Below, piece after piece: positions 6,045 to 19,017 of a stretch of 64,000 nucleotides of DNA. A program made the position numbers and the translations under genes. Each line of letters starts with the position of its first letter. The first letter of the stretch is position 1. The stretch lies in NCBI RefSeq assembly GCF_003019035.1, contig NZ_CP027447.1. One strand, written 5' to 3'. A model generated the notes under the pieces. The model was not told the origin of the DNA, did no database searches, and saw nothing but the letters and a program-made list of their open reading frames with translations. This DNA comes from Escherichia coli. GTDB taxonomy: Bacteria > Pseudomonadota > Gammaproteobacteria > Enterobacterales > Enterobacteriaceae.

Positions 6045-7187
6045 TCAAATCTGCTTTTCATACAATCGGTAACGCTTGTACGGCTCCGCCCCAATGCGTT
6101 CCAGCATGTTATTCATGCCTGTATTGGTTTCGAGGATCCATGACATCTCCAGCGCATCGATCTTCCGGCGGGCAAACGGATCGCGTAAGGCTTCAATCAA
6201 TAACAACGCAATCACCGGGCCGATGCGGCTGAACTGATACTCGTCCCGCACGCCCATCAGCGGTACTCGCGCAGTTCGCACACCGCTGACTTTTAAACGC
6301 CACAGCAATTTTGCCCAGCCGAAGGGAAAGAGCGATCCGTTCAGATCGGCAATCGCCTCGTTGATGTTTGGCAAGCCGACAATAAACGCGCAGGGTGCAG
6401 AATCAATCTCAGCGATGTAGATCATATCGTCCGGCACCAGATATTTAAGTTGGTCGCCCATGGTCGCGAATTCATGTTCGGTAAACGGCACAAATCCCCA
6501 GTTGTGCTGCCAGCCAGAATTGAAAATCTCACGCAGGATCTGCATCTCTTCGGCAAACCGCTGGCGATTGATGCAGCGAATGGTCACCTTCTTACGCACC
6601 TGATCCATCAGTTTTTTTAGCGCCGGAGAGAAAGTGAGATCGGTTCGCTGCATCCACCACGCCAGTAAATCAATGCCTTTGTGATAACCCAATTGTTCAA
6701 TATGCGCGGCATACCACGGTTTACCGTGCGGCATCATCGCACAGGGTGGTGTATCGAAACCTTCAATCAGTAATCCGCTTTCCTGATTGATATTCAGGCT
6801 GAAAGGCCCGCTGATCTTACTTGCACCTTGTGACTTCAACCACGCTTCCGCTGCGCCAAACAACGCGGCAAAAACCTGCGGATCATCAATGGCGTCAATC
6901 ATGCCGAAATGACCGGTATCTTTGCCGTAACGCTCGCGGTGCAAGGTATCTATTTGCGCGGTAATACGCCCAACTATCTGCCCCGCTTTTTTTGCCACCC
7001 ACGCCTGCCAGATGATATGGTCCGTCCCCGGATTTTTCGCAGACAAATGCTCGTTGCGTTCAATGAATAAAGGGGGTATCCAGTTTGGATCGTCGGGATA
7101 AAGTGATGACGGAAAAGCGATAAATGCCTTAAGGTCATTTTTATTAATTACTTTTTCAATTTTAATCATCAGCAGATCGCATTCCAT
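6045..7187 (-). CDS. yghO: GNAT-like N-acyltransferase, candidate amine N-acylating enzyme (possible ceramide-synthase analogue)
   Basis: 380-aa ORF recognised as YghO; acyl-CoA N-acyltransferase-like fold assignment is from memory of the family, not a motif I can point to; start could be 7169 (MIKIEKV). Confidence 0.7.
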   Translation of the reverse strand: MECDLLMIKIEKVINKNDLKAFIAFPSSLYPDDPNWIPPLFIERNEHLSAKNPGTDHIIWQAWVAKKAGQIVGRITAQIDTLHRERYGKDTGHFGMIDAIDDPQVFAALFGAAEAWLKSQGASKISGPFSLNINQESGLLIEGFDTPPCAMMPHGKPWYAAHIEQLGYHKGIDLLAWWMQRTDLTFSPALKKLMDQVRKKVTIRCINRQRFAEEMQILREIFNSGWQHNWGFVPFTEHEFATMGDQLKYLVPDDMIYIAEIDSAPCAFIVGLPNINEAIADLNGSLFPFGWAKLLWRLKVSGVRTARVPLMGVRDEYQFSRIGPVIALLLIEALRDPFARRKIDALEMSWILETNTGMNNMLERIGAEPYKRYRLYEKQI

Positions 7188-7530
7188 AGTTCTGTGGGTA
7201 ACAAATAATTAACGGTGACAAACAGGTTGCAACAGCAACGAACGGCACCTTAATAATCAACCCAATGAATACAAACGACGAATAAATAGTATTTATTAAT
7301 GATTACGATAAGGTCAGAGACTACACAGAAGCGCCACAATGCCTTTTGTCGATTTAAGGCGACCGGACAAGGCTCCTTCTTAATATATTCATAAATTAAA
7401 TATCATTCACAATAAAAACAAAAAACTCAAATTCATTATTTAAATCAATGTTCATTTTCACACTGATGAAAATACTATCTCATTTATCTTTTATGCCTAT
7501 ATAATCCACCGCATTATTGTCATTTTATTT
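7188..7530. promoter_or_regulatory. AT-rich divergent control region between yghO and the lipid-synthesis operon
   Basis: 343-bp strongly AT-rich non-coding interval (runs such as aataaatagtatttattaatgatta) between divergent genes. Confidence 0.45.
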
Positions 7531-9282
7531 TTGATATCCAATTTTTTCGTGGTGTATATGTCTAATAAAATCTTTACGCATTCCCTACCTATGCGCTATG
7601 CCGATTTTCCAACGCTGGTTGATGCTTTGGACTATGCCGCTCTGAGTAGCGCTGGAATGAATTTTTATGACAGACGTTGCCAACTTGAAGATCAACTGGA
7701 ATATCAGACGTTAAAAGCGCGTGCCGAAGCTGGTGCGAAGCGGTTGTTATCGCTGAACCTGAAAAAAGGCGATCGCGTGGCACTGATTGCCGAAACCAGT
7801 AGCGGGTTCGTAGAGGCTTTTTTTGCCTGCCAGTATGCCGGCTTAGTCGCCGTCCCGTTGGCGATTCCCATGGGCGTCGGTCAGCGGGATTCCTGGAGCG
7901 CCAAGCTGCAGGGTTTACTGGCAAGTTGCCAGCCCGCAGCCATTATCACTGGTGATGAGTGGTTGCCACTGGTCAATGCCGCGACGCATAACAACAACCC
8001 CGAATTACATGTTTTAAGCCACGCCTGGTTTAAGGCATTACCGGAAGCCGATGTTGCGCTCCAGCGTCCAGTTCCGAACGATATCGCCTACCTCCAGTAC
8101 ACCTCCGGCAGCACCCGTTTTCCCCGTGGCGTCATTATCACCCATCGCGAAGTGATGGCTAATCTACGTGCTATAAGCCACGATGGCATAAAATTACGCC
8201 CTGGCGACCGCTGCGTCTCCTGGCTGCCTTTCTACCATGATATGGGACTGGTCGGCTTTCTCCTGACCCCCGTCGCCACGCAGCTTTCAGTAGATTATTT
8301 GCGCACTCAGGATTTTGCCATGCGTCCTCTGCAATGGCTTAAATTGATCAGTAAAAATCGCGGCACCGTTTCCGTTGCGCCGCCGTTTGGCTATGAATTG
8401 TGCCAGCGCCGCGTGAATGAAAAAGATCTCGCTGAACTGGATCTTTCCTGCTGGCGCGTCGCTGGTATTGGTGCAGAACCCATCTCCGCAGAACAACTCC
8501 ATCAATTCGCTGAATGTTTCCGTCAGGTCAACTTTGACGATAAAACTTTCATGCCGTGCTACGGACTGGCAGAAAATGCGCTGGCTGTCAGCTTCTCTGA
8601 TGAAGCTTCCGGGGTTGTGGTTAACGAAGTGGATCGCGACATCCTCGAATATCAGGGCAAAGCCGTCGCGCCGGATGCTGAAACACGCGCCGTATCGACT
8701 TTCGTCAACTGCGGTAAAGCGTTGCCGGAACATGGCATTGAAATCCGCAATGAAGCAGGTATACCTGTCGCGGAACGTGTGGTAGGCCATATTTGCATCT
8801 CCGGCCCTAGCCTGATGAGCGGTTACTTTGGCGACCAGATTTCACAAGACGAGATTGCCGCGACGGGCTGGTTAGACACCGGCGACCTCGGTTATCTGCT
8901 GGACGGTTATCTGTATGTCACCGGACGCATTAAAGATCTGATTATTATTCGTGGCCGTAATATCTGGCCGCAGGATATTGAATATATTGCGGAACAGGAA
9001 CCGGAAATTCATTCTGGCGATGCGATTGCTTTTGTTACCGCCCAGGAAAAAATCATTTTGCAGATCCAGTGTCGGATCAGCGATGAAGAACGTCGCGGGC
9101 AGCTTATCCACGCGCTGGCAGCACGGATCCAAAGCGAATTTGGTGTGACCGCGGCTATCGATCTGTTGCCGCCCCACAGTATTCCCCGAACGTCCTCCGG
9201 CAAGCCTGCCCGTGCGGAAGCGAAAAAACGTTATCAGAAGGCTTATGCTGCAAGCCTTCATGTGCAGGAATCCCTGGCATGA
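7531..9282 (+). CDS. fatty acyl-AMP ligase / acyl-ACP synthetase (AMP-binding superfamily)
   Basis: 583-aa ORF with adenylation motif YTSGSTRFPRGV and C-terminal SSGKPAR-type motif; start may be 7558 or 7591; stop overlaps next start (ATGA). Confidence 0.8.
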   Translation: MISNFFVVYMSNKIFTHSLPMRYADFPTLVDALDYAALSSAGMNFYDRRCQLEDQLEYQTLKARAEAGAKRLLSLNLKKGDRVALIAETSSGFVEAFFACQYAGLVAVPLAIPMGVGQRDSWSAKLQGLLASCQPAAIITGDEWLPLVNAATHNNNPELHVLSHAWFKALPEADVALQRPVPNDIAYLQYTSGSTRFPRGVIITHREVMANLRAISHDGIKLRPGDRCVSWLPFYHDMGLVGFLLTPVATQLSVDYLRTQDFAMRPLQWLKLISKNRGTVSVAPPFGYELCQRRVNEKDLAELDLSCWRVAGIGAEPISAEQLHQFAECFRQVNFDDKTFMPCYGLAENALAVSFSDEASGVVVNEVDRDILEYQGKAVAPDAETRAVSTFVNCGKALPEHGIEIRNEAGIPVAERVVGHICISGPSLMSGYFGDQISQDEIAATGWLDTGDLGYLLDGYLYVTGRIKDLIIIRGRNIWPQDIEYIAEQEPEIHSGDAIAFVTAQEKIILQIQCRISDEERRGQLIHALAARIQSEFGVTAAIDLLPPHSIPRTSSGKPARAEAKKRYQKAYAASLHVQESLA

Positions 9283-10193
9283 ATCAAACTGTCGCGGTGA
9301 CGGGCGCTACCGGGTTTATCGGTAAATATATTATCGATAACCTGCTCGCCCGCGGCTTTCACGTTCGCGCATTGACGCGTACTGCCCGTGCTCACGTCAA
9401 TGACAATCTCATCTGGGTGCGCGGTTCTCTGGAAGATACTCATTCACTTAGCGAACTGGTTGCCGGAGCCAGCGTGGTGGTCCATTGCGCCGGGCAAGTG
9501 CGCGGGCACAAAGAAGAGATTTTTACCCGCTGTAACGTTGACGGCAGCCTGCGACTGATGCAAGCGGCAAAAGAGAGCGGCTTTTGCCAACGTTTTCTGT
9601 TTATCTCTTCGCTGGCGGCGCGCCATCCCGAACTCTCCTGGTACGCAAATTCCAAACACGTCGCCGAACAACGGCTGACTGCAATGGCTGATGAAATTAC
9701 GCTGGGCGTTTTTCGCCCGACAGCCGTGTATGGTCCCGGCGATAAAGAGTTAAAACCGCTGTTTGACTGGATGCTGCGCGGCCTGCTGCCACGACTTGGT
9801 GCGCCAGATACACAACTCTCTTTCCTGCACGTCACCGATTTTGCGCAAGCAGTGGGTCAGTGGTTAAGCGCCGAAACTGTACAGACGCAAACCTATGAAT
9901 TATGCGATGGCGTCGCTGGCGGCTATGACTGGCAACGCGTACGACAGCTTGCCGCCGAAGCCCGTTGTGGTTCTGTGCAGATGGTTGGCATTCCTCTGCC
10001 GGTACTCACCTGCCTTGCGGATATCAGTACTGCGTTGAGTCGCCTGGCAGGTAAAGAACCTATGCTGACCCGCTCGAAAATTCGTGAATTAACCCACGCC
10101 GACTGGTCGGCAAATAATAACCGTATTTCTGAAGATATTAATTGGTTTCCCGGGATTAGCCTGGAACACGCATTACGCAACGGGCTATTTTGA
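9279..10193 (+). CDS. NAD(P)-dependent epimerase/dehydratase-fold reductase
   Basis: 304-aa ORF; N-terminal Rossmann motif VTGATGFIGKYI; translationally coupled to upstream ligase. Confidence 0.8.
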   Translation: MNQTVAVTGATGFIGKYIIDNLLARGFHVRALTRTARAHVNDNLIWVRGSLEDTHSLSELVAGASVVVHCAGQVRGHKEEIFTRCNVDGSLRLMQAAKESGFCQRFLFISSLAARHPELSWYANSKHVAEQRLTAMADEITLGVFRPTAVYGPGDKELKPLFDWMLRGLLPRLGAPDTQLSFLHVTDFAQAVGQWLSAETVQTQTYELCDGVAGGYDWQRVRQLAAEARCGSVQMVGIPLPVLTCLADISTALSRLAGKEPMLTRSKIRELTHADWSANNNRISEDINWFPGISLEHALRNGLF

Positions 10194-10224
10194 TTGTCTT
10201 GTTTAAAGGTGTGTTAACGTTTCT

Positions 10225-10473
10225 ATGGTAAATCGTGAAATAGTAATGGATTACATCCTTTCCTGTTTACAGGATTTGGTCGAAAACGGTGTGGAAATTA
10301 AGCCCAACAGCGATCTCGTCAACGATCTTGGCCTGGAGTCGATCAAAGTGATGGATCTCTTAATGATGCTGGAAGACAGATTCGATATTTCCATTCCTAT
10401 TAATATTCTGCTGGATGTCAAAACCCCTGTGCAATTAATGGAAACTCTACTTCCATGGCTGGAGAATAAATAA
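10225..10473 (+). CDS. acyl carrier protein (dedicated)
   Basis: 82-aa acidic ORF with phosphopantetheine-attachment-type motif DLGLESIKVMDL; stop overlaps next start (TAATG); start may be 10246. Confidence 0.75.
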   Translation: MVNREIVMDYILSCLQDLVENGVEIKPNSDLVNDLGLESIKVMDLLMMLEDRFDISIPINILLDVKTPVQLMETLLPWLENK

Positions 10474-11645
10474 TGGGGCTATACGATAAATATGCGCGCC
10501 TTGCTGGCGAGCGACTGCAATTTAGTGACAACGGGTTAACGCCGTTTGGTACCTGTATTGATGAAGTGTATTCCGCCACCGAAGGTCGGATCGGCAATAA
10601 AAAAGTGATTCTGGCCGGGACCAATAATTATCTCGGTTTAACCTTTAATCATGATGCCATCGCCGAAGGTCAGGCAGCGTTAGCGGCCCAAGGCACCGGC
10701 ACCACCGGTTCTCGTATGGCTAATGGCAGTTATGCGCCGCATCTGGCGTTAGAGAAAGAGATTGCCGAGTTTTTCAATCGCCCTACCGCTATCGTTTTTT
10801 CAACCGGTTATACCGCTAATTTAGGCGTCATCAGCGCACTTGCCGACCATAACGCCGTGGTGTTACTGGATGCCGACAGCCACGCCAGTATTTATGACGC
10901 CTGTTCTCTCGGTGGCGCGGAAATTATTCGTTTCCGCCATAACGATGCTAAAGATCTGGAACGGCGCATGGTTCGCCTCGGTGAACGGGCGAAAGAGGCG
11001 ATTATCATCGTTGAGGGCATCTACAGCATGCTCGGTGACGTTGCGCCGTTAGCGGAAATTGTTGATATCAAACGTCGTCTCGGTGGTTATTTGATTGTCG
11101 ATGAAGCGCATTCGTTTGGCGTGTTAGGCGCAACGGGGCGCGGACTGGCTGAAGCCGTTGGCGTTGAAGATGATGTGGATATTATCGTTGGTACTTTCAG
11201 TAAAAGTCTGGCCTCGATTGGCGGTTTTGCTGTCGGTTCGGAAGCGATGGAAGTGTTGCGCTACGGCAGCCGCCCGTATATTTTTACCGCCTCTCCTTCT
11301 CCGTCCTGCATTGCGACCGTGCGCTCGTCGTTAAGAACCATTGCCTCACAACCAGAGCTGCGGCAAAAGCTGATGGATAACGCCAACCATCTGTATGACG
11401 GTCTGCAAAAACTGGGTTATGAGTTAAGTTCACATATTAGCCCGGTAGTGCCGGTAATAATCGGTTCGAAAGAGGACGGTTTACGCATCTGGCGCGAGCT
11501 TATTTCGCTGGGCGTTTATGTGAATCTTATCCTGCCACCTGCCGCGCCTGCAGGCATCACTCTGCTGCGCTGTAGCGTAAACGCTGCCCACAGTCATGAG
11601 CAAATCGATGCCATCATTCAGGCATTTGCTACTCTGAAGCAGTAA
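10473..11645 (+). CDS. PLP-dependent alpha-oxoamine synthase (serine palmitoyltransferase / KBL / BioF family)
   Basis: 390-aa ORF; class-II aminotransferase fold with PLP-lysine motif GTFSKSLASIGGF; K-12 bioF and kbl are located elsewhere. Confidence 0.8.
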   Translation: MGLYDKYARLAGERLQFSDNGLTPFGTCIDEVYSATEGRIGNKKVILAGTNNYLGLTFNHDAIAEGQAALAAQGTGTTGSRMANGSYAPHLALEKEIAEFFNRPTAIVFSTGYTANLGVISALADHNAVVLLDADSHASIYDACSLGGAEIIRFRHNDAKDLERRMVRLGERAKEAIIIVEGIYSMLGDVAPLAEIVDIKRRLGGYLIVDEAHSFGVLGATGRGLAEAVGVEDDVDIIVGTFSKSLASIGGFAVGSEAMEVLRYGSRPYIFTASPSPSCIATVRSSLRTIASQPELRQKLMDNANHLYDGLQKLGYELSSHISPVVPVIIGSKEDGLRIWRELISLGVYVNLILPPAAPAGITLLRCSVNAAHSHEQIDAIIQAFATLKQ

Positions 11646-11679
11646 TGTGAGCCCGCCGTGGTGTTGCGCCACGGCGGGT

Positions 11680-12759
11680 TTAATGTTGTCTGTCATACCA
11701 ATACACCAGGCTCAACGCCATCAGGACAAACGCTACCGGTAAACCGAGCGCGGTAACAGGTGCACTCAACGCAAATAGCAACCCCAGATTGACCATGATT
11801 TGATAGCTGATCCAGGTGAGTAAGCCAACGATGACGCCTACAGCGAGACGGCTACCCATCCCTGGCGAGCGCGGGGCGCTAAAGGTGAACGGCACAGCCA
11901 GCAAAATCATCGCCAGGGTCAGGATCGGTTGCCCCAGTTTTTCCCACAGTGCAAGGCGGTATTCGCTGCTGGGTTGTCCGGTTTCCTGCAAATAATGGAT
12001 GTAATGATTAAGCTGACGGACAGAAAAAGTATTCCCCGGCATCGATAACTCTTCAAGATCCATACTGGTGAAGGCCGATTGCCAGGCAAGATTATCTGAT
12101 GTTTCCAGCGTTTCTTTGCCATTCAACCATTTTTTATGATTCACACCATGCAGGATCCACGTTTTGTCGTCTTCAATGGAGGCACTGCGTGCAAAAATGT
12201 AGGATTCGAGCGAGAGATCGTCGCGATAATGAAATATCTCCACGCCCACAGGCTGGCCCTGCTCGTTCAGCGATTTCACCGTCACAAATTCATTACCGCG
12301 CCTGGCCCAAAGCATATTGCCGGTAATGTCATCGTCCTCCCCCAACGCGGTGGCAGTCGATTTGATTTGCAGCGCCTGTTGCTGCAATGGCGACGCCACC
12401 CACTCATCTATCGCGCCTAACGAAACAGTCCACAATATCCCGGCAACCAGCGCCACCAGTGCAATACGGAAGATAGAAAACCCAGTGCTGCGAATGGCGG
12501 TAAGCTCACTGTTTTTCGATAACTGCCCCAGGCCAACAATCCCTCCCAATAATGCGATAAATGGCGAAAGTTCGACCAGTGTACGCGGTAAGGTCATCAG
12601 CACCACCAGCACCGCCTGAGTCCAGCGATAACCGCCCGGGCTGACATCATCCAGTTCGTTAATCAGGTTGAAGGTGGTAAAAAGCGGCAGCAATAGCCCT
12701 GCGGCGGCGGCAAAACCGAGAAAGAGATGACGGATTAAATAGCGACTGAAAACATTCAT
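11680..12759 (-). CDS. LptG-like permease (YjgP/YjgQ family)
   Basis: Multi-pass membrane ORF; start set at MNVFSRYLIRH so that it overlaps the upstream gene stop by 4 nt (longest ORF extends to 12840). Confidence 0.7.
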   Translation of the reverse strand: MNVFSRYLIRHLFLGFAAAAGLLLPLFTTFNLINELDDVSPGGYRWTQAVLVVLMTLPRTLVELSPFIALLGGIVGLGQLSKNSELTAIRSTGFSIFRIALVALVAGILWTVSLGAIDEWVASPLQQQALQIKSTATALGEDDDITGNMLWARRGNEFVTVKSLNEQGQPVGVEIFHYRDDLSLESYIFARSASIEDDKTWILHGVNHKKWLNGKETLETSDNLAWQSAFTSMDLEELSMPGNTFSVRQLNHYIHYLQETGQPSSEYRLALWEKLGQPILTLAMILLAVPFTFSAPRSPGMGSRLAVGVIVGLLTWISYQIMVNLGLLFALSAPVTALGLPVAFVLMALSLVYWYDRQH

Positions 12760-13826
12760 CGGGAAAATTTCTGCAGCAAAGAGAAGTCGCGTGCGACCAG
12801 CATCAGCAGGCCCATTAGCATGAGTCCGGGTACTAACCACAAACCAGGAATGAGGGGAATCGCACCGTTAGCCACCAGCGTACGGCAGACGTCGCCGCCA
12901 TAAAAAATGGCAACAAACAGCAACGTCAGTGGCAATAACGTTGAAAATCGCCCTTGCCGCGGTTTTACCCGACTTAATGAAATGGCCAGCAGCGCCATCA
13001 ACAATGCGGTCAGGCCACGGCTTTGTCGCCATTGCAGTTCGGCATGATCGGCTGGAAAGACGGAGCGCGCCAGCTCCGTGACCGATTTTGCTTTGCGTTT
13101 GACGTTAGGGCTTTGATCCAGCTGATTCAGATGTAATTGCAGATTACGGTAGATCTGTTCGTTGTCGTCACGCCCCTGATGATCGAGAAGATAGGCGGTC
13201 CCGTTATGCAACATAACGGTCGGTTTCTCAGGTGATGGGTCAACCACATCAACCGAACGGGCGCGGAAAATGCGGGTTCGATTGGCAGTAGAAGTATAAA
13301 TCAGCGCGTCAGTCAGGCGATTATTATCCTGATCAACCGTCTGCGAAAGGATCATTCGTCCGTTATCGTTAGTGTTAAATTTCTTTGCCCGCAACTGGCG
13401 AACATCCAGCTCCGACTGCGACTGTTGCTCCAGTTGATAAATCTGCGCATAAGCCCACGGCCGACCATACATCGACAGAAGGGTGACAAAAATACTTAGC
13501 GGTATCGCCAGATAAAGAACGGCTTTGTACAAGCGTCCCGGACTGCCCCCCGCCGCAGAGATAGCGGTAATTTCCGAGTCGGTATACATCTGCCCTAGCG
13601 TCACGCCAACTGACACATACAGACCAACAGGTAACAACATCTCCAGTGCAATCAGCACTTTGTAGAAAACGATATCCAGCACAACATCAAGAGCTAAGGT
13701 CCCATTTGCCGCTTCGGTCAGATAACGCTGTGCGGAGTAGCTGGCGAAAATAAAGATCAGAAAACCGACGATAATCAGCACCAGACGGCGCGTACCACGC
13801 ATGATGTAGTGTTCAACCAGCTTCAT
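12756..13826 (-). CDS. LptF-like permease (YjgP/YjgQ family)
   Basis: 356-aa ORF, N-terminal TM helices, large periplasmic loop, C-terminal TM helices; paired with LptG-like gene. Confidence 0.7.
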   Translation of the reverse strand: MKLVEHYIMRGTRRLVLIIVGFLIFIFASYSAQRYLTEAANGTLALDVVLDIVFYKVLIALEMLLPVGLYVSVGVTLGQMYTDSEITAISAAGGSPGRLYKAVLYLAIPLSIFVTLLSMYGRPWAYAQIYQLEQQSQSELDVRQLRAKKFNTNDNGRMILSQTVDQDNNRLTDALIYTSTANRTRIFRARSVDVVDPSPEKPTVMLHNGTAYLLDHQGRDDNEQIYRNLQLHLNQLDQSPNVKRKAKSVTELARSVFPADHAELQWRQSRGLTALLMALLAISLSRVKPRQGRFSTLLPLTLLFVAIFYGGDVCRTLVANGAIPLIPGLWLVPGLMLMGLLMLVARDFSLLQKFSR

Positions 13827-13856
13827 CTCACTAACACCCTCAATCCTTTGAATTTT

Positions 13857-14420
13857 TTATTCATTGATCAGTTTCTGCGCCAGCGCAATGACATGATCTA
13901 CCTCTTCCGGCGTCAGGCTGCCGTCCTTTGCCCACTGAATTTGCCCGTCTTTATTCAGCACCAGAATGGTTGAACTCTGCTCCGGCAACCGCCAGGCAAC
14001 GCGTCCCAGTCCATTGCCGTCAATAACGAATTGCGCCCACGGATAGCGGCGTTTATTTTTTTCGATTTTGCCAACGACAAAATAGCCAGTACCGAAGATG
14101 GCATCATCGGTGTTCACAATGGTGGTGGGCTGAAAACGATCCTGCGGAAAGTTTGCCGCTTCAACCGCTTTAATTAACAGTGAGTTCTTTTTCTTCGCCG
14201 ACTTACGCCCGGCGATATACTGAATAATGCGGACTTTTCCCGCCAGCTGTGTGCTGTTCCACTTTTGGTAGTGAATTTCGTCGTCGCTATTCAGAAGCAG
14301 CTCGCCGCCTTCCTGGATATAAACGGGGGTAACCGTTTTGCCAGTGACGAAATTGTGTGCCTGCACACCCTGGGCTAAGAGCATGATAATCAGCGCAATA
14401 ATCAAACGAGATGACATCAT
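13857..14420 (-). CDS. secreted/periplasmic protein of unknown function (possibly thioredoxin-like fold)
   Basis: 187-aa ORF with N-terminal signal peptide MMSSRLIIALIIMLLAQGVQA; fold assignment is a guess. Confidence 0.55.
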   Translation of the reverse strand: MMSSRLIIALIIMLLAQGVQAHNFVTGKTVTPVYIQEGGELLLNSDDEIHYQKWNSTQLAGKVRIIQYIAGRKSAKKKNSLLIKAVEAANFPQDRFQPTTIVNTDDAIFGTGYFVVGKIEKNKRRYPWAQFVIDGNGLGRVAWRLPEQSSTILVLNKDGQIQWAKDGSLTPEEVDHVIALAQKLINE

Positions 14421-14428
14421 TGCTCCGG

Positions 14429-15253
14429 TTATAGCGGAAAACGCGAAATCAGCAGCTCTAAGCGCTGGCGAATATCGCTATCCAGCGCCACCGGTGCATC
14501 ATACGACTGGCGGTTTTCCATATCATCCGCCACCATGTCGTCGTGTTTATCCCCCATCAGGCCATTAATGGCGGCGAGGAAGCGGGAAATCTGTAACGCC
14601 TCTTTATTTTCAGGATCAAGCGATCTTAAGGTGTCGTAATAAGAAACCTGCTGGCTGATGATTTTTCGCACATCATGAAATTCCCTGCCGGTGAGTCGCG
14701 GTTTGGCAATTATCTCTTTCAGGGTATGCATTTGCTTTTGCCGATAGGCAATAAAACCGCTTACGCTTTCTAACTGGCTATGGCGTAATGAATAGTTCAC
14801 CAACGACCAGACCGGAGAGCTTAAATAAACCCGTAACAGGTTGCCGTAATACGACACAATATTTTTCTTACCGTTACGAAAACCGTCCTGAAAACGCCCC
14901 AAAAAAACGGTCGTTTTGCCGAATAAAAATCCGGCCTGATGCTTCTTTAAATACAGCCGTTGCGCAAAACGCAGGTGCTTGTAGCGCGCTCGCATGTATT
15001 TATACTTTTTGCGCTCATCGTCGGTAAGTATTTTGCCTTTTGCTTGTTTCAGCGTTAAGCGAAGTAACTCTTTGCGATTTACACCATCCAGCCAGAATCT
15101 CAAACATAAGGCATAATTGTCATGAATAATCTCCGGTGAACAGCGCAAAGTGATCGTTGGCGGCAAGCTAACCTGTGTGTCAATAACATCATTATCATCA
15201 ACAGCAATAAATAAACGCTCAATGACCTCAAGTGGAAAGTATTTTCTCATCAT
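14429..15253 (-). CDS. hypothetical basic protein, no recognisable domain
   Basis: 274-aa ORF; start overlaps yghQ stop (ATGA coupling) so likely translated. Confidence 0.55.
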   Translation of the reverse strand: MMRKYFPLEVIERLFIAVDDNDVIDTQVSLPPTITLRCSPEIIHDNYALCLRFWLDGVNRKELLRLTLKQAKGKILTDDERKKYKYMRARYKHLRFAQRLYLKKHQAGFLFGKTTVFLGRFQDGFRNGKKNIVSYYGNLLRVYLSSPVWSLVNYSLRHSQLESVSGFIAYRQKQMHTLKEIIAKPRLTGREFHDVRKIISQQVSYYDTLRSLDPENKEALQISRFLAAINGLMGDKHDDMVADDMENRQSYDAPVALDSDIRQRLELLISRFPL

Positions 15254-16602
15254 TGGAATTTTTCTCCGACTCCGTTATAGACCAATAAATGGCGACGGAG
15301 AAAAGTCCTTAATGTCGGTGCTAACGACAGGATCACATCCAGACATTGACCACCGAAATAAGCAAATGCAGCCCCCATTACGCCAAACAGATGACAAAAC
15401 ATAAACAACAAAATAACGTAAGCTAACGATGCAATAGTTTGTGCTATCAAAAAAGCGCGCTGTTTTCCCGCCATCAATAGCAATGACTCCTGAGGGAAGC
15501 CCAGCATCGAGATCACAATTGCGCCCAGCATCACCTGAATCAGGTCATACGCTTCGAGATACTTAACGCCAAACACCAGCGAAATAAGCGGCTTGCCGAC
15601 GATCAACACCGCGAGCGCCACCAGAATTCCGATTCCGCCCGCCAGTAAACCTGACTTCACGCCTAACAACCACGGTCTGGTGGTGCGCGGATCTAAACGC
15701 ATCACCTCTGGGTAAAAACTTTTGCCCAGTAAACCCGCTGGCGTTCCGGCGGCGTCGAAGAATGTCATGGCGATTTTAAATAACCCGGCGGCAGCGGGTC
15801 CTAACACGATCCCCACCAGCACTGTGCTGCACGAGTTACGCGCCGACCAGATGGAGTGGGCAATGTTGGTTGACCAGACAAAACTCCACGCGCCTTTGAT
15901 GTGTCGGGCAGACTCAAACAGATTCAATTTGAACGCGTTATGGATATTTCTGCGGCGTAATTCGCGCGCGGCAAACCACCAGTACATGGTGCCGCCAACC
16001 AGATTCGACACGTACCAGGCAATAACAAAGCCCGCAAAACCAAAGTCAAAATACCAGGCTACGACGCTCCCCGCTGCGCGCAGAAAAGGTTTCGTCGCTT
16101 GCTGTACAGCAATTAGATCGAAGCGATCTACCGCACGCAGAATGCCGGTCGGCGTGGAGGAAGCCATTGAAGGAATGAGCGTGCAATACAGCGCTGCCAG
16201 CCAAAAGCTTTGGTCATCCAGACCTAATGAATGGGAAAGAAAAGGGAGTAAGGCAATGCCGCCGACAATCGCCACCGCGCCGCTGACGATATCCAGCGAG
16301 AAGGAAAATGAGACGACATTGCGGAATTGCTGCGGATTATTGTTGGTTAATGCTGGTGTTCCGTACTGAACCACCAGCTGCCATGTCTGAAACTTAATAA
16401 AATCGCTGATCGACTTGGCGTACGATTGTACAATCACCAGTACGCCAAACATGGCGGGCGTCATCCCTTTACCGGCACACGAGAGCGCCAACAGACCCAG
16501 TAAAGCGCTCACGACATTACTGGAGCCTAACCAGGCGCTATTGCGAATAATGGTGCGAAACGCGCCATCTGCAAACCAATGTTTGATGTTAAAACCCGCC
16601 AA
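15250..16602 (-). CDS. yghQ: MOP-superfamily (Wzx/MurJ-like) flippase, full length
   Basis: 450-aa polytopic membrane ORF; recognised as YghQ but longer than the 355 aa I recall for K-12; start uncertain. Confidence 0.75.
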   Translation of the reverse strand: MAGFNIKHWFADGAFRTIIRNSAWLGSSNVVSALLGLLALSCAGKGMTPAMFGVLVIVQSYAKSISDFIKFQTWQLVVQYGTPALTNNNPQQFRNVVSFSFSLDIVSGAVAIVGGIALLPFLSHSLGLDDQSFWLAALYCTLIPSMASSTPTGILRAVDRFDLIAVQQATKPFLRAAGSVVAWYFDFGFAGFVIAWYVSNLVGGTMYWWFAARELRRRNIHNAFKLNLFESARHIKGAWSFVWSTNIAHSIWSARNSCSTVLVGIVLGPAAAGLFKIAMTFFDAAGTPAGLLGKSFYPEVMRLDPRTTRPWLLGVKSGLLAGGIGILVALAVLIVGKPLISLVFGVKYLEAYDLIQVMLGAIVISMLGFPQESLLLMAGKQRAFLIAQTIASLAYVILLFMFCHLFGVMGAAFAYFGGQCLDVILSLAPTLRTFLRRHLLVYNGVGEKFQ

Positions 16603-16647
16603 TTCAGCCTGACCTTATCGTTGATAGTAAAAAGTATCCCGCCAGCC

Positions 16648-17406
16648 TTAAGTTAAACTTCGGCGGTCAGAAACGATGGCAACCAGAGAAACCGCCTTCT
16701 GTGCCTGTTCCAGCACTTCGCTGTAAGGCGCTCTGGAATCAATCTCAAGAATTTTTGTGCCGTTATAGCCAATCGTCGACATGACGCCGATTTTGTCCTG
16801 CAGCTCGGCATAGTCATGGTCAGGCTTGCGGGAGATGGCAGTATCAATATCAATCCCCAAACGAATGATTAATTCAGGACGGTATTGCGCCATTTGTTGG
16901 TATAAACGCCGTTCGCGCTGCGCCAGAAACATGCTGATTTTCCCGGTCGCACGTTCGACGCCGATCCCCGGTCCGTCATAATAAAAGCCCGAAATTTCAG
17001 CCTGCGGGAAGCGATCGCTGACCACCAGAACGCCACTTTGCGCCAGTCGCTGAACCTTGCGTAGATTCGCCATTCTTCGCAGCGAGAAGCAGTACATAAT
17101 CACCGCCGCCCATACCGCCGGAGATTTGGTTTTCATGCTTTGGGTTTTCGAGGATTTGGCCGCCAGTCGCCGTTCGAGCCAGACGCCAACCAACGGCAAT
17201 CGTTTGATTTTGTCGCCGTCTTCGCCCGAGAGCAGCCCCAGATAGCGCCGCTCGGTTTGCCAGTGTTGTTGCAGCGATTTCACGAGGTCGGTGGTCAGTG
17301 TGGATTTACCGGTGCCATCACACCCGACCACCGCAATCAGCCCCGGAATGTAGTTGGGCTGCGGCGCGGTTGTACTATTAACAGTTTGTGTTTGTAGTGC
17401 GTCCAT
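16648..17406 (-). CDS. yghR: P-loop NTPase/kinase-like protein
   Basis: Walker A GCDGTGKST; conserved SDRFP and ARKPDH motifs shared with yghS and yghT; no ABC signature LSGGQ. Confidence 0.8.
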   Translation of the reverse strand: MDALQTQTVNSTTAPQPNYIPGLIAVVGCDGTGKSTLTTDLVKSLQQHWQTERRYLGLLSGEDGDKIKRLPLVGVWLERRLAAKSSKTQSMKTKSPAVWAAVIMYCFSLRRMANLRKVQRLAQSGVLVVSDRFPQAEISGFYYDGPGIGVERATGKISMFLAQRERRLYQQMAQYRPELIIRLGIDIDTAISRKPDHDYAELQDKIGVMSTIGYNGTKILEIDSRAPYSEVLEQAQKAVSLVAIVSDRRSLT

Positions 17407-17437
17407 TCGTTAAATCATCCCCTATCCATTTTGGTGA

Positions 17438-18151
17438 TCAGGAAAGCGCAGCGTGAATTGCGCGTAGTGACGCTTGCAGAATTTCATCGGCTGGTTGCCG
17501 ACCATCCAGTTCAAGGATCTTTGCGCCATTGAATGTCAGTTGCGGCGTAACGGCGATTTTTTCCTGTAACGCTGCCAGTTGGTGGTCAGGTTTACGCGCA
17601 AACGCGGTTTGTTCATCAATGCCAAGACGAATCAACAATACGGGCAAATAAGACGCCATCCATTGGTACAGCTTCAGCTCGCGCTGCCTTAACATTTTTA
17701 TCCAACCGTTACCGCCCGTGGTTTTTGCCAATTGCGGGCCATCAAAGCGAAAACCCGGCACTTCAACCTGCGGGTAGCGGTCGGTGATGAGCAGATAGCC
17801 TTGCTGGCTTTTACACAACATTTTGCGAAACTTGTACGCCCGCCAGCAGGAAAGCAGATAGATAACCAGCGCAGTAATATTGCCAGGCGGTGTGGAGGGC
17901 TTTTCGTGCACATGTGCCGCTTTACTTCGCAGATAACGCCCAAAAGGTGCGCCAATAACAGGGAGCTGTGAAATCCATTCGCCAATTCGCCCGGACGATT
18001 GCCCGAGATAAATGTGTTCTGTTGGCATTGTTGCTGCCAGTTCATTTACCAGGCTTGCCGTGAGGGTCGATTTACCTGAACCATCACATCCTACAATGGC
18101 AATAACACGCACTGGCGTGGAATTAATTATTGACATATTACGTTGATTCAC
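17438..18151 (-). CDS. yghS: P-loop NTPase/kinase-like protein (paralogue of yghR)
   Basis: Walker A GCDGSGKST; TDRYP and ARKPDH motifs. Confidence 0.8.
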   Translation of the reverse strand: MNQRNMSIINSTPVRVIAIVGCDGSGKSTLTASLVNELAATMPTEHIYLGQSSGRIGEWISQLPVIGAPFGRYLRSKAAHVHEKPSTPPGNITALVIYLLSCWRAYKFRKMLCKSQQGYLLITDRYPQVEVPGFRFDGPQLAKTTGGNGWIKMLRQRELKLYQWMASYLPVLLIRLGIDEQTAFARKPDHQLAALQEKIAVTPQLTFNGAKILELDGRQPADEILQASLRAIHAALS

Positions 18152-18324
18152 GAAAAACCCGGCAGCAAATAATGTATTGAATATTACGTGGTCCGTGCTC
18201 AGAATATCCGTTCAACCTTATTGTGACAATGGTTAATTGTGACATTGACCTGAATTACGCTTTCATAAAAACATATTAACCAAATAAATATTTTTAATGG
18301 ATATTTAAATTAAAGGATATATTC

Positions 18325-19017
18325 ATGCAGTCAATAACACCTCCATTAATTGCCGTTATTGGTAGCGATGGTTCAGGCAAGTCAACGGTGTGTGAACATC
18401 TCATTACCGTTGTCGAAAAATATGGTGCTGCCGAAAGAGTTCATTTAGGAAAACAGGCCGGAAATGTCGGTCGTGCAGTGACAAAATTACCGTTGATGGG
18501 AAAATCCTTACATAAAACAATTGAACGAAATCAGGTGAAAACAGCAAAAAAATTGCCAGGACCAGTTCCGGCGCTGGTAATTACAGCGTTTGTCGCCCGT
18601 CGCTTACTGCGCTTTCGTCATATGCTTGCCTGTCGTCGTCGCGGGTTAATTGTTCTAACCGACCGTTATCCTCAGGACCAAATTCCTGGCGCTTACGATG
18701 GTACAGTGTTCCCACCTAACATTGAAGGTGGTCGTTTTGTCTCATGGCTGGCAAGCTAGGAACGTAAAGCGTTTCACTGGATGGCGAGCCATAAACCGGA
18801 TCTGGTCATCAAACTCAATGTTGACCTTGAAGTTGCCTGCGCGCGTAAACCCGACCATAAACGGGAATCGCTGGCGAGGAAGATTGCCATAACGCCACAG
18901 TTAACCTTTGGCGGTGCACAACTGGTTGATATCGATGCTAATCAGCCACTGGAAAAGGTGCTGATTGATGCAGAAAAAGCGATTACGGATTTTATGACCG
19001 CGCGTGGTTATCACTAG
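18325..19017 (+). pseudogene. yghT: P-loop NTPase/kinase-like protein interrupted by an in-frame TAG at 18757-18759
   Basis: 144-aa and 78-aa ORFs are in the same frame; the 693-nt span is 231 codons (230 aa plus stop) with one internal TAG; Walker [10 protein letters not shown]. Confidence 0.6.

Follow-up and report, generated by a model that had tools for sequence, protein, structure and literature searches.

A seven-gene operon beside the ceramide cassette of Escherichia coli, with the divergent gene yghT, as the probable head-group and Lpt-type export half of a sphingolipid locus

In this work, we analyzed a stretch of 64,000 nucleotides from Escherichia coli (contig NZ_CP027447.1, assembly GCF_003019035.1), hereafter called the window, focusing on a seven-gene minus-strand operon at positions 11680-18151 and on the divergent gene yghT next to it. 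Our results indicate that the operon and yghT probably constitute the post-ceramide half of an E. coli sphingolipid locus, organized in two modules: one for head-group addition and flipping, with the P-loop kinases YghR, YghS and YghT, a CHAD-fold protein and the flippase YghQ, and another for Lpt-type export, with paralogues of the lipopolysaccharide (LPS) permeases LptF and LptG (LptF2 and LptG2) and of the periplasmic protein YtfJ (YtfJ2). An earlier note on this DNA had suggested a dedicated route taking a non-LPS lipid to the outer membrane, and this suggestion is supported by homology, conservation and gene context, as the adjoining biosynthesis cassette corresponds to a sphingolipid pathway and the route has a precedent in Caulobacter.

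According to the mechanism that we propose, the plus-strand operon and YghO would make ceramide in the cytoplasm, a step partly shown for the E. coli enzymes; YghR, YghS and YghT, helped by the CHAD-fold protein, would attach an anionic phosphorylated head group to ceramide on the cytoplasmic side; and YghQ would move the product across to the periplasmic leaflet, as suggested by its family and by analogy to CC_1166 of Caulobacter. LptF2 and LptG2 would then dock the housekeeping LptB dimer, extract the sphingolipid from the inner membrane and pass it to the Lpt bridge towards the outer membrane, a step put forward on the basis of conserved coupling glutamates and of the Caulobacter experiments, while YtfJ2 may act as a periplasmic accessory factor, for which the argument is its strict co-occurrence with the permeases and nothing else.

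The cassette facing the operon encodes, by RefSeq product names, a fatty acyl-AMP ligase (aasR), an NAD-dependent epimerase family protein (cerR/epi), an acyl carrier protein (acpR) and a serine palmitoyltransferase (spt), matching the Pfam families AMP-binding, Epimerase, PP-binding and Aminotran_1_2. Divergent and in front of them lies yghO, which has been equated with aca, ECD_02850 (PMC9386255), and whose orthologues in the Enterobacterales loci are 74-98% identical. These five genes constitute the bacterial dihydroceramide pathway; AasR, AcpR and SPT from E. coli BL21 have been expressed, with 3-oxo-sphinganine as the product (PMC9386255). The transport half has its precedent in Caulobacter, where in 2024 CC_1155, CC_1156 and CC_1168 (LptG2, LptF2 and LptC2), together with CC_1166, were proposed to move phosphosphingolipids to the outer membrane, the Polysacc_synt-family protein CC_1166 being the proposed flippase (PMC11324152). 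A later study reported that deletion of the Caulobacter lpt paralogues is tolerated only in the absence of spt or of the ceramide kinase gene cpgB, that LptF2 and LptG2 are essential only when an anionic sphingolipid is made, that the two proteins co-purify and both bind the single LptB, and that lptF2 and lptG2 are found in many alpha- and gamma-proteobacterial sphingolipid loci, lptC2 being restricted to Caulobacter (bioRxiv 10.64898/2026.04.12.717747).

In order to explore the conservation of the operon, one genome per species (GTDB) was scanned with a 14-sequence alignment of the CHAD-like protein, the larger 80-sequence alignment being too diverse for this purpose, and the 78 loci obtained were then searched with 13 window proteins. 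All 13 genes are present in the Enterobacterales loci where the flank suffices, including those of Escherichia, Pseudocitrobacter, Hafnia, Sodalis, Serratia, Pantoea, Erwinia, Citrobacter, Mangrovibacter, Klebsiella indica, Tatumella, Cedecea, Rosenbergiella and Rahnella, with gene orders that differ among E. coli, Serratia and Sodalis (loci L006 and L007 for the last two). As judged from these comparisons the gene arrangement is non-random, since the same genes remain clustered in many genera despite their reshuffled order. The Rhodanobacteraceae (Luteibacter, Rhodanobacter and Dyella) carry yghT, yghS-yghR and aasR-cerR-acpR-spt-yghQ-CHAD, the spt-yghQ-CHAD segment being contiguous on one strand, without LptF2, LptG2 or YtfJ. 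In Sphingomonadales and Acetobacteraceae only the core yghS-yghR-yghT-yghQ-CHAD is found, as an operon apart from spt; Sphingomonas, Zymomonas and Gluconobacter are reported to have spt with dispersed sphingolipid genes (PMC9386255). Core carriers of the Enterobacterales and Rhodanobacteraceae have spt within the locus (the check covered the core carriers except Carnimonas and two metagenome-assembled genomes). The distribution of these genes across the loci indicates that the CHAD-like gene, the kinases and YghQ form a separable core found in sphingolipid-making Proteobacteria, to which LptF2, LptG2 and the YtfJ paralogue constitute an add-on of the Enterobacterales. The earlier note had tied the permeases to the biosynthesis module, and in the surveyed loci the pair occurs only beside spt (37 of 37 loci with enough flank); in all five LptG2 loci without spt the relevant flank is truncated, and the pair never appears in core loci distant from spt.

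The recognition of both permeases as LptG- and LptF-like held up well: LptG2 scores 305.1 bits on TIGR04408 (cut-off 240) and LptF2 scores 319.5 on TIGR04407 (cut-off 230), and both match PF03739 (LptF_LptG). They are 28% (LptG2, over 350 residues) and 30% (LptF2) identical to their K-12 counterparts and can be aligned over their whole length with solved LptF and LptG chains, with the architecture of transmembrane segments (TM) 1-3, periplasmic domain and TM4-6, and with 5-6 hydrophobic segments at the positions seen in the K-12 proteins. Against the solved LptG chains of Pseudomonas, Vibrio, Enterobacter, E. coli, Shigella and Klebsiella, LptG2 scores 140-147 bits (125 for 8frl_G), and LptF2 scores best on 6mjp_F, 5x5y_F and 9doh_F (~114 bits), the remaining solved LptF chains giving 78-95 bits. 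By sequence, LptF2 and LptG2 are old paralogues and no recent copies of the host lptFG, given these low identities and the about equal scores against most of the solved LptF and LptG chains of distant gamma-proteobacteria. The identities between the Caulobacter and S. wittichii proteins, also 28-30%, cannot by themselves decide the common descent of the LptF2/LptG2 pairs.

We further aligned 36 LptG2 and 37 LptF2 non-identical enterobacterial orthologues with K-12 LptG and LptF, taking the LPS-contact residues from the Shigella cryo-EM structure, in which LptG K34, K40, K41 and R133 are basic residues binding the lipid A phosphates and inner core (PMC6744409). In all 36 LptG2 orthologues K34 is replaced by N, D or T, K40 by D or E, K41 by D, and R133 by L or Q, so that none of them has the basic residues, in LptG TM1 and at the periplasmic rim, by which an LPS-specific extractor would be marked; moreover, D, N or E is gained at LptG position 66, and LptF K322 is replaced by N in the LptF2 orthologues. 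The hydrophobic residues of the cavity keep their character, and LptF E84 and LptG E88, which we take to be the coupling-helix glutamates docking LptB, are kept in 37 of 37 LptF2 and 36 of 36 LptG2 sequences. The pair therefore looks suited to LptB docking and to a ligand with acyl chains and some phosphate, and not to lipid A, as the TM1 lysines are replaced while the coupling glutamates and the hydrophobic cavity are maintained. No ABC ATPase is encoded in the E. coli locus according to RefSeq and Pfam, nor in the other Enterobacterales loci, and the earlier suggestion that the canonical LptB could be borrowed is supported, by analogy, by the invariant glutamates and by the Caulobacter pair pulling down LptB. 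A broader inversion of charge over the whole of LptG2 was also considered and rejected: the isoelectric point of the window protein is 5.5 versus 9.5 for canonical LptG, but the median of the orthologues is 8.7, and because the low value is not conserved only the site-specific replacements are claimed.

Alternatively, LptF2 and LptG2 could be a spare or specialized LPS extractor, for modified lipid A or for stress, set among unrelated envelope genes. Their scores above the NCBIfam "equivalog" cut-offs, their RefSeq product names as LPS export permeases and the retention of four basic cavity residues (LptF R33, LptF K317 as R, LptG K62 as R, and LptG R136 as K or R) would be expected under this explanation, which we nevertheless regard as very improbable, given that the three TM1 lysines are replaced throughout, that a K34E change in canonical LptG is lethal (PMC6744409), that the essentiality of the Caulobacter pair depends on sphingolipid synthesis, and that the surveyed pairs keep to the side of spt, in the window with lptG2 ending 34 nucleotides from it.

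Regarding the head-group module, the two P-loop proteins noted earlier, YghR and YghS, were confirmed as such, and yghT, although beyond the interval first considered, belongs to the same set. The three proteins are mutually 35-45% identical (YghR-YghS, 40%), and yghT orthologues accompany yghR and yghS in most surveyed loci. They display the thymidylate-kinase fold, with a Walker A motif (GxDGxGKST) and, following strand 3, a DRY motif, in addition to an RKPDH motif specific to the family and an insertion that spans residues 45-115; the Walker A, DRYPQ and RKPDH motifs are invariant across 28 sequences from five lineages. A sequence search of the PDB with YghR yielded no relative. The possibility that these proteins serve as the missing ATPase of the permeases did not hold, since neither the ABC signature motif (LSGGQ) nor the ABC nucleotide-binding fold was found in YghR or YghS; not being ABC ATPases, YghR, YghS and YghT cannot replace LptB, and their motifs and fold indicate small-molecule or lipid phosphotransferases instead of a transporter motor. 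They are probably not dTMP kinases either, as they reach 24.8-30.9 bits on the dTMP kinase model TIGR00041, with a cut-off of 83.25, and the RefSeq naming of yghS and yghT as "dTMP kinase" is probably an over-annotation spread over thousands of genomes. E. coli has its own tmk besides these genes. An anti-phage defence function for the pair of P-loop and helical proteins was also considered and discarded, the PADLOC matches being only trivial ones to the P-loop.

The 274-residue protein encoded within the operon had been described as having no recognizable domain, a statement that we revise, as it is predicted to adopt the fold of the conserved histidine alpha-helical domain (CHAD). It is soluble and basic, and its AlphaFold model is all-helical, with a predicted local distance difference test score of 97. 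The protein itself has no Pfam or NCBIfam match; among 80 relatives scanned singly, Pfam CHAD (PF05235) was reached by 3 at E<=1e-3 and by 22 at E<=0.1, with a best value of 2.5e-5. The family comprises 193 clusters at 50% identity, and the 80-sequence alignment reveals invariant R88, D123, H193 and R196 and near-invariant K92, R95, H105, K197, H237 and D238, located in the repeated motifs RARFKxLRF...MGxLQD and FHxxRKIISR...NGLMGxxHD. CHAD domains have been described as binders of inorganic polyphosphate, with stand-alone genes in operons of polyphosphate kinases or phosphatases (bioRxiv 10.1101/567040); the E. coli protein may correspondingly be a binder or scaffold for phosphate groups. A tandem fusion of 564 residues occurs in the metagenomic protein P0123 (L008, 1488-3182), and two separate CHAD-like genes are present in a Luteibacter genome (L054, 9152-10816) and in a gammaproteobacterial metagenome-assembled genome (L083, 5525-8669).

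The fold and the conserved catalytic motifs of the kinases, the phosphate binding of CHAD domains and the linkage to spt in two orders lead us to propose, tentatively and with less than even confidence, that YghR, YghS, YghT and the CHAD-fold protein equip ceramide with a phosphorylated head group. A more specific version, which we consider unlikely, is that the CHAD-fold protein and the three kinases build a phospho-anhydride head group on ceramide (a pyro-, tri- or oligophosphate, or a phosphate-linked substituent), exported via YghQ, LptF2 and LptG2 with LptB, and YtfJ2; this version is drawn from the use of phosphate acceptors by kinases of the nucleoside monophosphate type, the binding of phosphate chains by CHAD domains and the recognition of pyrophosphate-linked lipids by MOP flippases. 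If it were true, it would define an undescribed class of anionic sphingolipids in E. coli, other Enterobacterales, Rhodanobacteraceae, sphingomonads and acetic-acid bacteria, and the orphan YtfJ family would gain its first functional context.

YghQ, recognized earlier as a Wzx/MurJ-like flippase, is indeed a member of the MOP superfamily (Polysacc_synt), with precomputed Pfam matches of the 450-residue product to PF01943 and PF13440, and it shares InterPro IPR002797 with Caulobacter CC_1166. It is no WzxC orthologue, since it scores 36 bits versus 273 on the NCBIfam MOP model. A sequence search of the PDB gave nothing useful for YghQ, and a crude hydropathy count (6 segments) was not used as evidence of topology. 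In K-12 the protein is a truncated remnant of 355 residues; because the gene is truncated by IS5, the published K-12 yghQ phenotypes concern this remnant and were not used here.

The signal-peptide protein of the operon proved to be a YtfJ-family member with a Sec-type signal peptide, taken directly from the translation (MMSSRLIIALIIMLLAQGVQA, followed by H), and without cysteine. YtfJ2 scores 216 bits on TIGR01626 (cut-off 151.1), matches PF09695 (E 1.9e-59) and is 55% identical to the housekeeping YtfJ of K-12 (L089, 4709-5263), a representative of an orphan family without known function; a PDB sequence search gave nothing useful for YtfJ2. LptG2 and YtfJ2 occur together in 42 of the 78 loci and are both missing from 34, with two loci having YtfJ2 only and none LptG2 only. 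YtfJ2, a paralogue duplicated together with LptFG, may provide a first contextual clue to a role of YtfJ proteins in envelope lipid transport.

The operon structure, previously described as seven minus-strand genes convergent with the biosynthesis operon, was corroborated on the RefSeq gene models (Table 1). The seven co-directional open reading frames are separated by -4, 30, 11, -4, 45 and 31 nucleotides, and both ATGA overlaps were verified on the minus strand, at 12759-12756 (gATGAatg) and 15253-15250 (caATGAtg); the opposing genes are yghO-aasR-cerR-acpR-spt. For the first listed gene, lptG2, the strand was right, but the extent 11680-12840 corresponds to the maximal reading frame only, the likely start being ATG 12759 within the ATGA overlap, which is also the annotated start. 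The 34-nucleotide junction between spt and lptG2 holds a G+C-rich hairpin that is probably a bidirectional terminator. The sigma-70-like site between yghS and yghT is a candidate based on consensus match only, and a FlhDC peak obtained by systematic evolution of ligands by exponential enrichment has been reported between these two genes in K-12. On the chromosome, the locus lies in the glc-pitB region (glcDEFGB-glcC-yghO ... yghT-pitB-gss-hyb).

Table 1. Features of the operon and its surroundings in the window (positions of the 64,000-nucleotide stretch).
Feature	Position	Strand	Description
yghO	6045..7187	-	Bacterial ceramide synthase-type N-acyltransferase (RefSeq name; "aca"); biosynthesis half, outside the operon
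Ceramide-precursor operon	7558..11645	+	aasR 7558-9282, cerR/epi 9279-10193, acpR 10225-10473, spt 10473-11645
Hairpin	11648-11682		16-bp stem with 10 G-C pairs, between convergent spt and lptG2 (terminator scan)
lptG2	11680..12759	-	LptG paralogue; 6 TM-like segments and periplasmic domain
lptF2	12756..13826	-	LptF paralogue; stop overlaps lptG2 start (ATGA)
ytfJ2	13857..14420	-	Periplasmic YtfJ-family protein
CHAD-fold gene	14429..15253	-	274 residues, isoelectric point 9.6
yghQ	15250..16602	-	MOP-superfamily (Polysacc_synt) flippase, full length 450 residues
yghR	16648..17406	-	P-loop kinase, thymidylate-kinase fold, paralogue 1
yghS	17438..18151	-	P-loop kinase, thymidylate-kinase fold, paralogue 2; first operon gene
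yghS/yghT divergent control region	18152-18324		Sigma-70-like site on the minus strand, 18229-18201 (promoter scan)
yghT	18325..19017	+	Third paralogous P-loop kinase, divergent; in-frame TAG 18757-18759 in the window

Several points weigh against the assignment of the operon to a sphingolipid locus. YghR, YghS and YghT are not homologous to CpgB, the ceramide kinase of Caulobacter, a relationship that was considered and rejected since CpgB belongs to the LCB5/diacylglycerol-kinase family (GGDG motif) and is not a P-loop kinase. The loci surveyed were found through the CHAD-like gene, and the survey is thus blind to LptF2, LptG2 or yghQ in loci lacking it. Distant CHAD-like members on short metagenome contigs still adjoin YghRST-like genes, but such contigs also pair CHAD-like and P-loop genes with unrelated ParAB, GT4 and NTP_transf_3 genes, so that the core could serve another envelope molecule. 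Finally, K-12 lacks the locus without obvious harm, yghT is broken in the window, and no sphingolipid native to E. coli was found in the literature searched, in which nothing relevant to yghQRST function was found either; the loss in K-12 and the broken yghT imply that the system is dispensable and possibly silent in the laboratory.

The metagenome contigs lead to an alternative in which the core acts on another phosphate-rich molecule of the envelope or the cytoplasm, such as an undecaprenyl-pyrophosphate-linked glycan, polyphosphate or the nucleotide pool, and is merely co-regulated with the sphingolipid genes. MOP flippases classically carry undecaprenyl-pyrophosphate-linked cargo, CHAD domains have the polyphosphate association described above, the core stands apart from spt in Sphingomonadales and Acetobacteraceae, and some metagenome contigs have it beside a GT4 glycosyltransferase or a nucleotidyl (NTP) transferase. 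In addition, a PmrA/PmrB- or QseB/QseC-like two-component system lies divergent beside the core operon in 13 of 19 sphingomonad loci (e.g., L061, 4915-7025), which hints that the core is regulated as an envelope-modification system. However, two orders that arrange the genes differently both have the core linked to spt, in Rhodanobacteraceae contiguously on one strand; the named core lineages, Carnimonas and the two metagenome-assembled genomes aside, have spt either in the locus or according to the literature (PMC9386255); and neither the RefSeq annotation nor Pfam places a glycosyltransferase, Wzy, Wzz or polyphosphate enzyme in the E. coli locus. Overall, a non-sphingolipid substrate appears rather improbable to us.

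As a further alternative, E. coli could have inherited the locus as an evolutionary relic that is seldom if ever expressed and is in the process of being lost. In K-12 MG1655 (L002, 4147-5341), an IS5 element takes the place of all that lies between the 5' end of yghO and the first quarter of yghQ (window ~7100-16300), including aasR, cerR, acpR, spt, lptG2, lptF2, ytfJ2 and the CHAD-like gene, which explains why the locus has been little studied. In the window, a C-to-T change turns Gln145 of yghT into a stop, leaving 144 residues, whereas strain SCU-301 has CAG and an intact gene of 230 residues; the 51-mer bearing the TAG is present in five complete genomes only, of which four carry the label O55:H7. 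Of 5426 complete E. coli genomes, 4095 (~75%) contain at least 80% of an 8-kb query taken across the operon (window 11000-19000), about a quarter thus lacking an intact copy. These losses, together with the missing report of an E. coli sphingolipid in the literature searched, are what a relic would show. On the other hand, the ratio of nonsynonymous to synonymous substitution rates between E. coli and Escherichia whittamii is 0.035-0.13 for every one of the 13 genes, close to that of the flanking housekeeping genes pitB and gss (0.016), and all 13 genes are under purifying selection, the locus being kept by selection in the genus. Moreover, the reading frames are intact, their translational coupling is conserved, and the locus is maintained across many Enterobacterales genera, which makes the relic the least probable of the explanations weighed here. 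Over 31 kb, the window differs from SCU-301 (NZ_CP051751.1) at three positions, 3233 (A/C), 18757 (T/C) and 19549 (C/T), so that it stems from a very near relative of that strain or from a different version of it, and the remaining complete genomes are ~98% identical to the window across the locus.

Other genes were observed around the core in individual lineages. In Rhodanobacteraceae (L047, 11775-20492; L051 and L054-L056), an MdtABC-like pump of the resistance-nodulation-division (RND) type and a NodT-type outer-membrane channel lie between the CHAD-like gene and yghO, and this pump may be an alternative exporter; an MmpL gene adjoins spt in Myxococcus (bioRxiv 10.64898/2026.04.12.717747). 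In the Sodalis locus, yghO and yghR are separated by a gene for a DgkA-type diacylglycerol kinase (L007, 17823-18182), and in that of Serratia marcescens lptG2 is immediately followed by a phospholipase-like (DUF8093) gene together with two ankyrin-repeat genes (L006, 13856-16919). As neighbour clustering in high-G+C loci gave many spurious antisense reading frames, only annotated families were used.

The presence of the locus in most E. coli, including BL21 and the uropathogenic strain UTI89, is of interest because E. coli is not regarded as a sphingolipid producer. If the cassette and the export operon are active, E. coli outer membranes may, in the gut or in the course of infection, hold an anionic sphingolipid that competes with LPS for LptB, with possible effects on barrier function, polymyxin binding and host signalling. 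The conserved core points to an uncharacterized head-group chemistry, and under the proposed sphingolipid pathway five orphan genes of E. coli, namely yghQ, yghR, yghS, yghT and the CHAD-like gene, receive roles that can be tested.

Regarding known systems, the Lpt-paralogue route, including the borrowing of LptB, is already published, and the E. coli locus (strain UTI89) was already drawn beside those of Caulobacter and Sphingomonas in April 2026 (bioRxiv 10.64898/2026.04.12.717747, Fig. 2B). For the CHAD assignment, the triplet of thymidylate-kinase-fold proteins, and the split into a core and an LptF2G2-YtfJ add-on, no earlier description was found. As in Caulobacter, with lptF2 (CCNA_01214), lptG2 (CCNA_01213) and CC_1166, the E. 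coli locus has permease paralogues and a Polysacc_synt protein, and no copy of LptB. The two variants differ in their head-group genes and accessory transport factors: Caulobacter has lptC2 (CCNA_01226), cpgA-D, CC_1158 and CC_1167, none of which is in the E. coli locus, which has instead the YtfJ paralogue, the CHAD-fold protein and the three thymidylate-kinase-fold proteins. The proposed analogy to the CpgB/CPG2 (ceramide diphosphoglycerate) pathway is that of a cytoplasmic phosphorylation of ceramide leading to an anionic outer-membrane sphingolipid. Compared with the canonical LptB2FGC complex (lptF b4261, lptG b4262), the E. coli pair shares the architecture, 28-30% identity, the coupling glutamates and the hydrophobic cavity, but it has lost LptG K34, K40, K41 and R133 and LptF K322, and is encoded beside spt and not pepA. 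YghR, YghS and YghT resemble the group of thymidylate kinases, deoxynucleoside kinases and PPK2 in fold, Walker A and DRY motif, and depart from it as three conserved paralogues in a lipid locus, with the RKPDH motif and the insertion. Lastly, unlike known CHAD proteins (PF05235; 6qv5, 6rn5 PptA, 3e0s, and the C-terminal domain of E. coli YgiF), whose partners are PPK1, PPK2, PPX and CYTH, the E. coli protein reaches no Pfam CHAD score and is accompanied by thymidylate-kinase-fold proteins and a lipid flippase.

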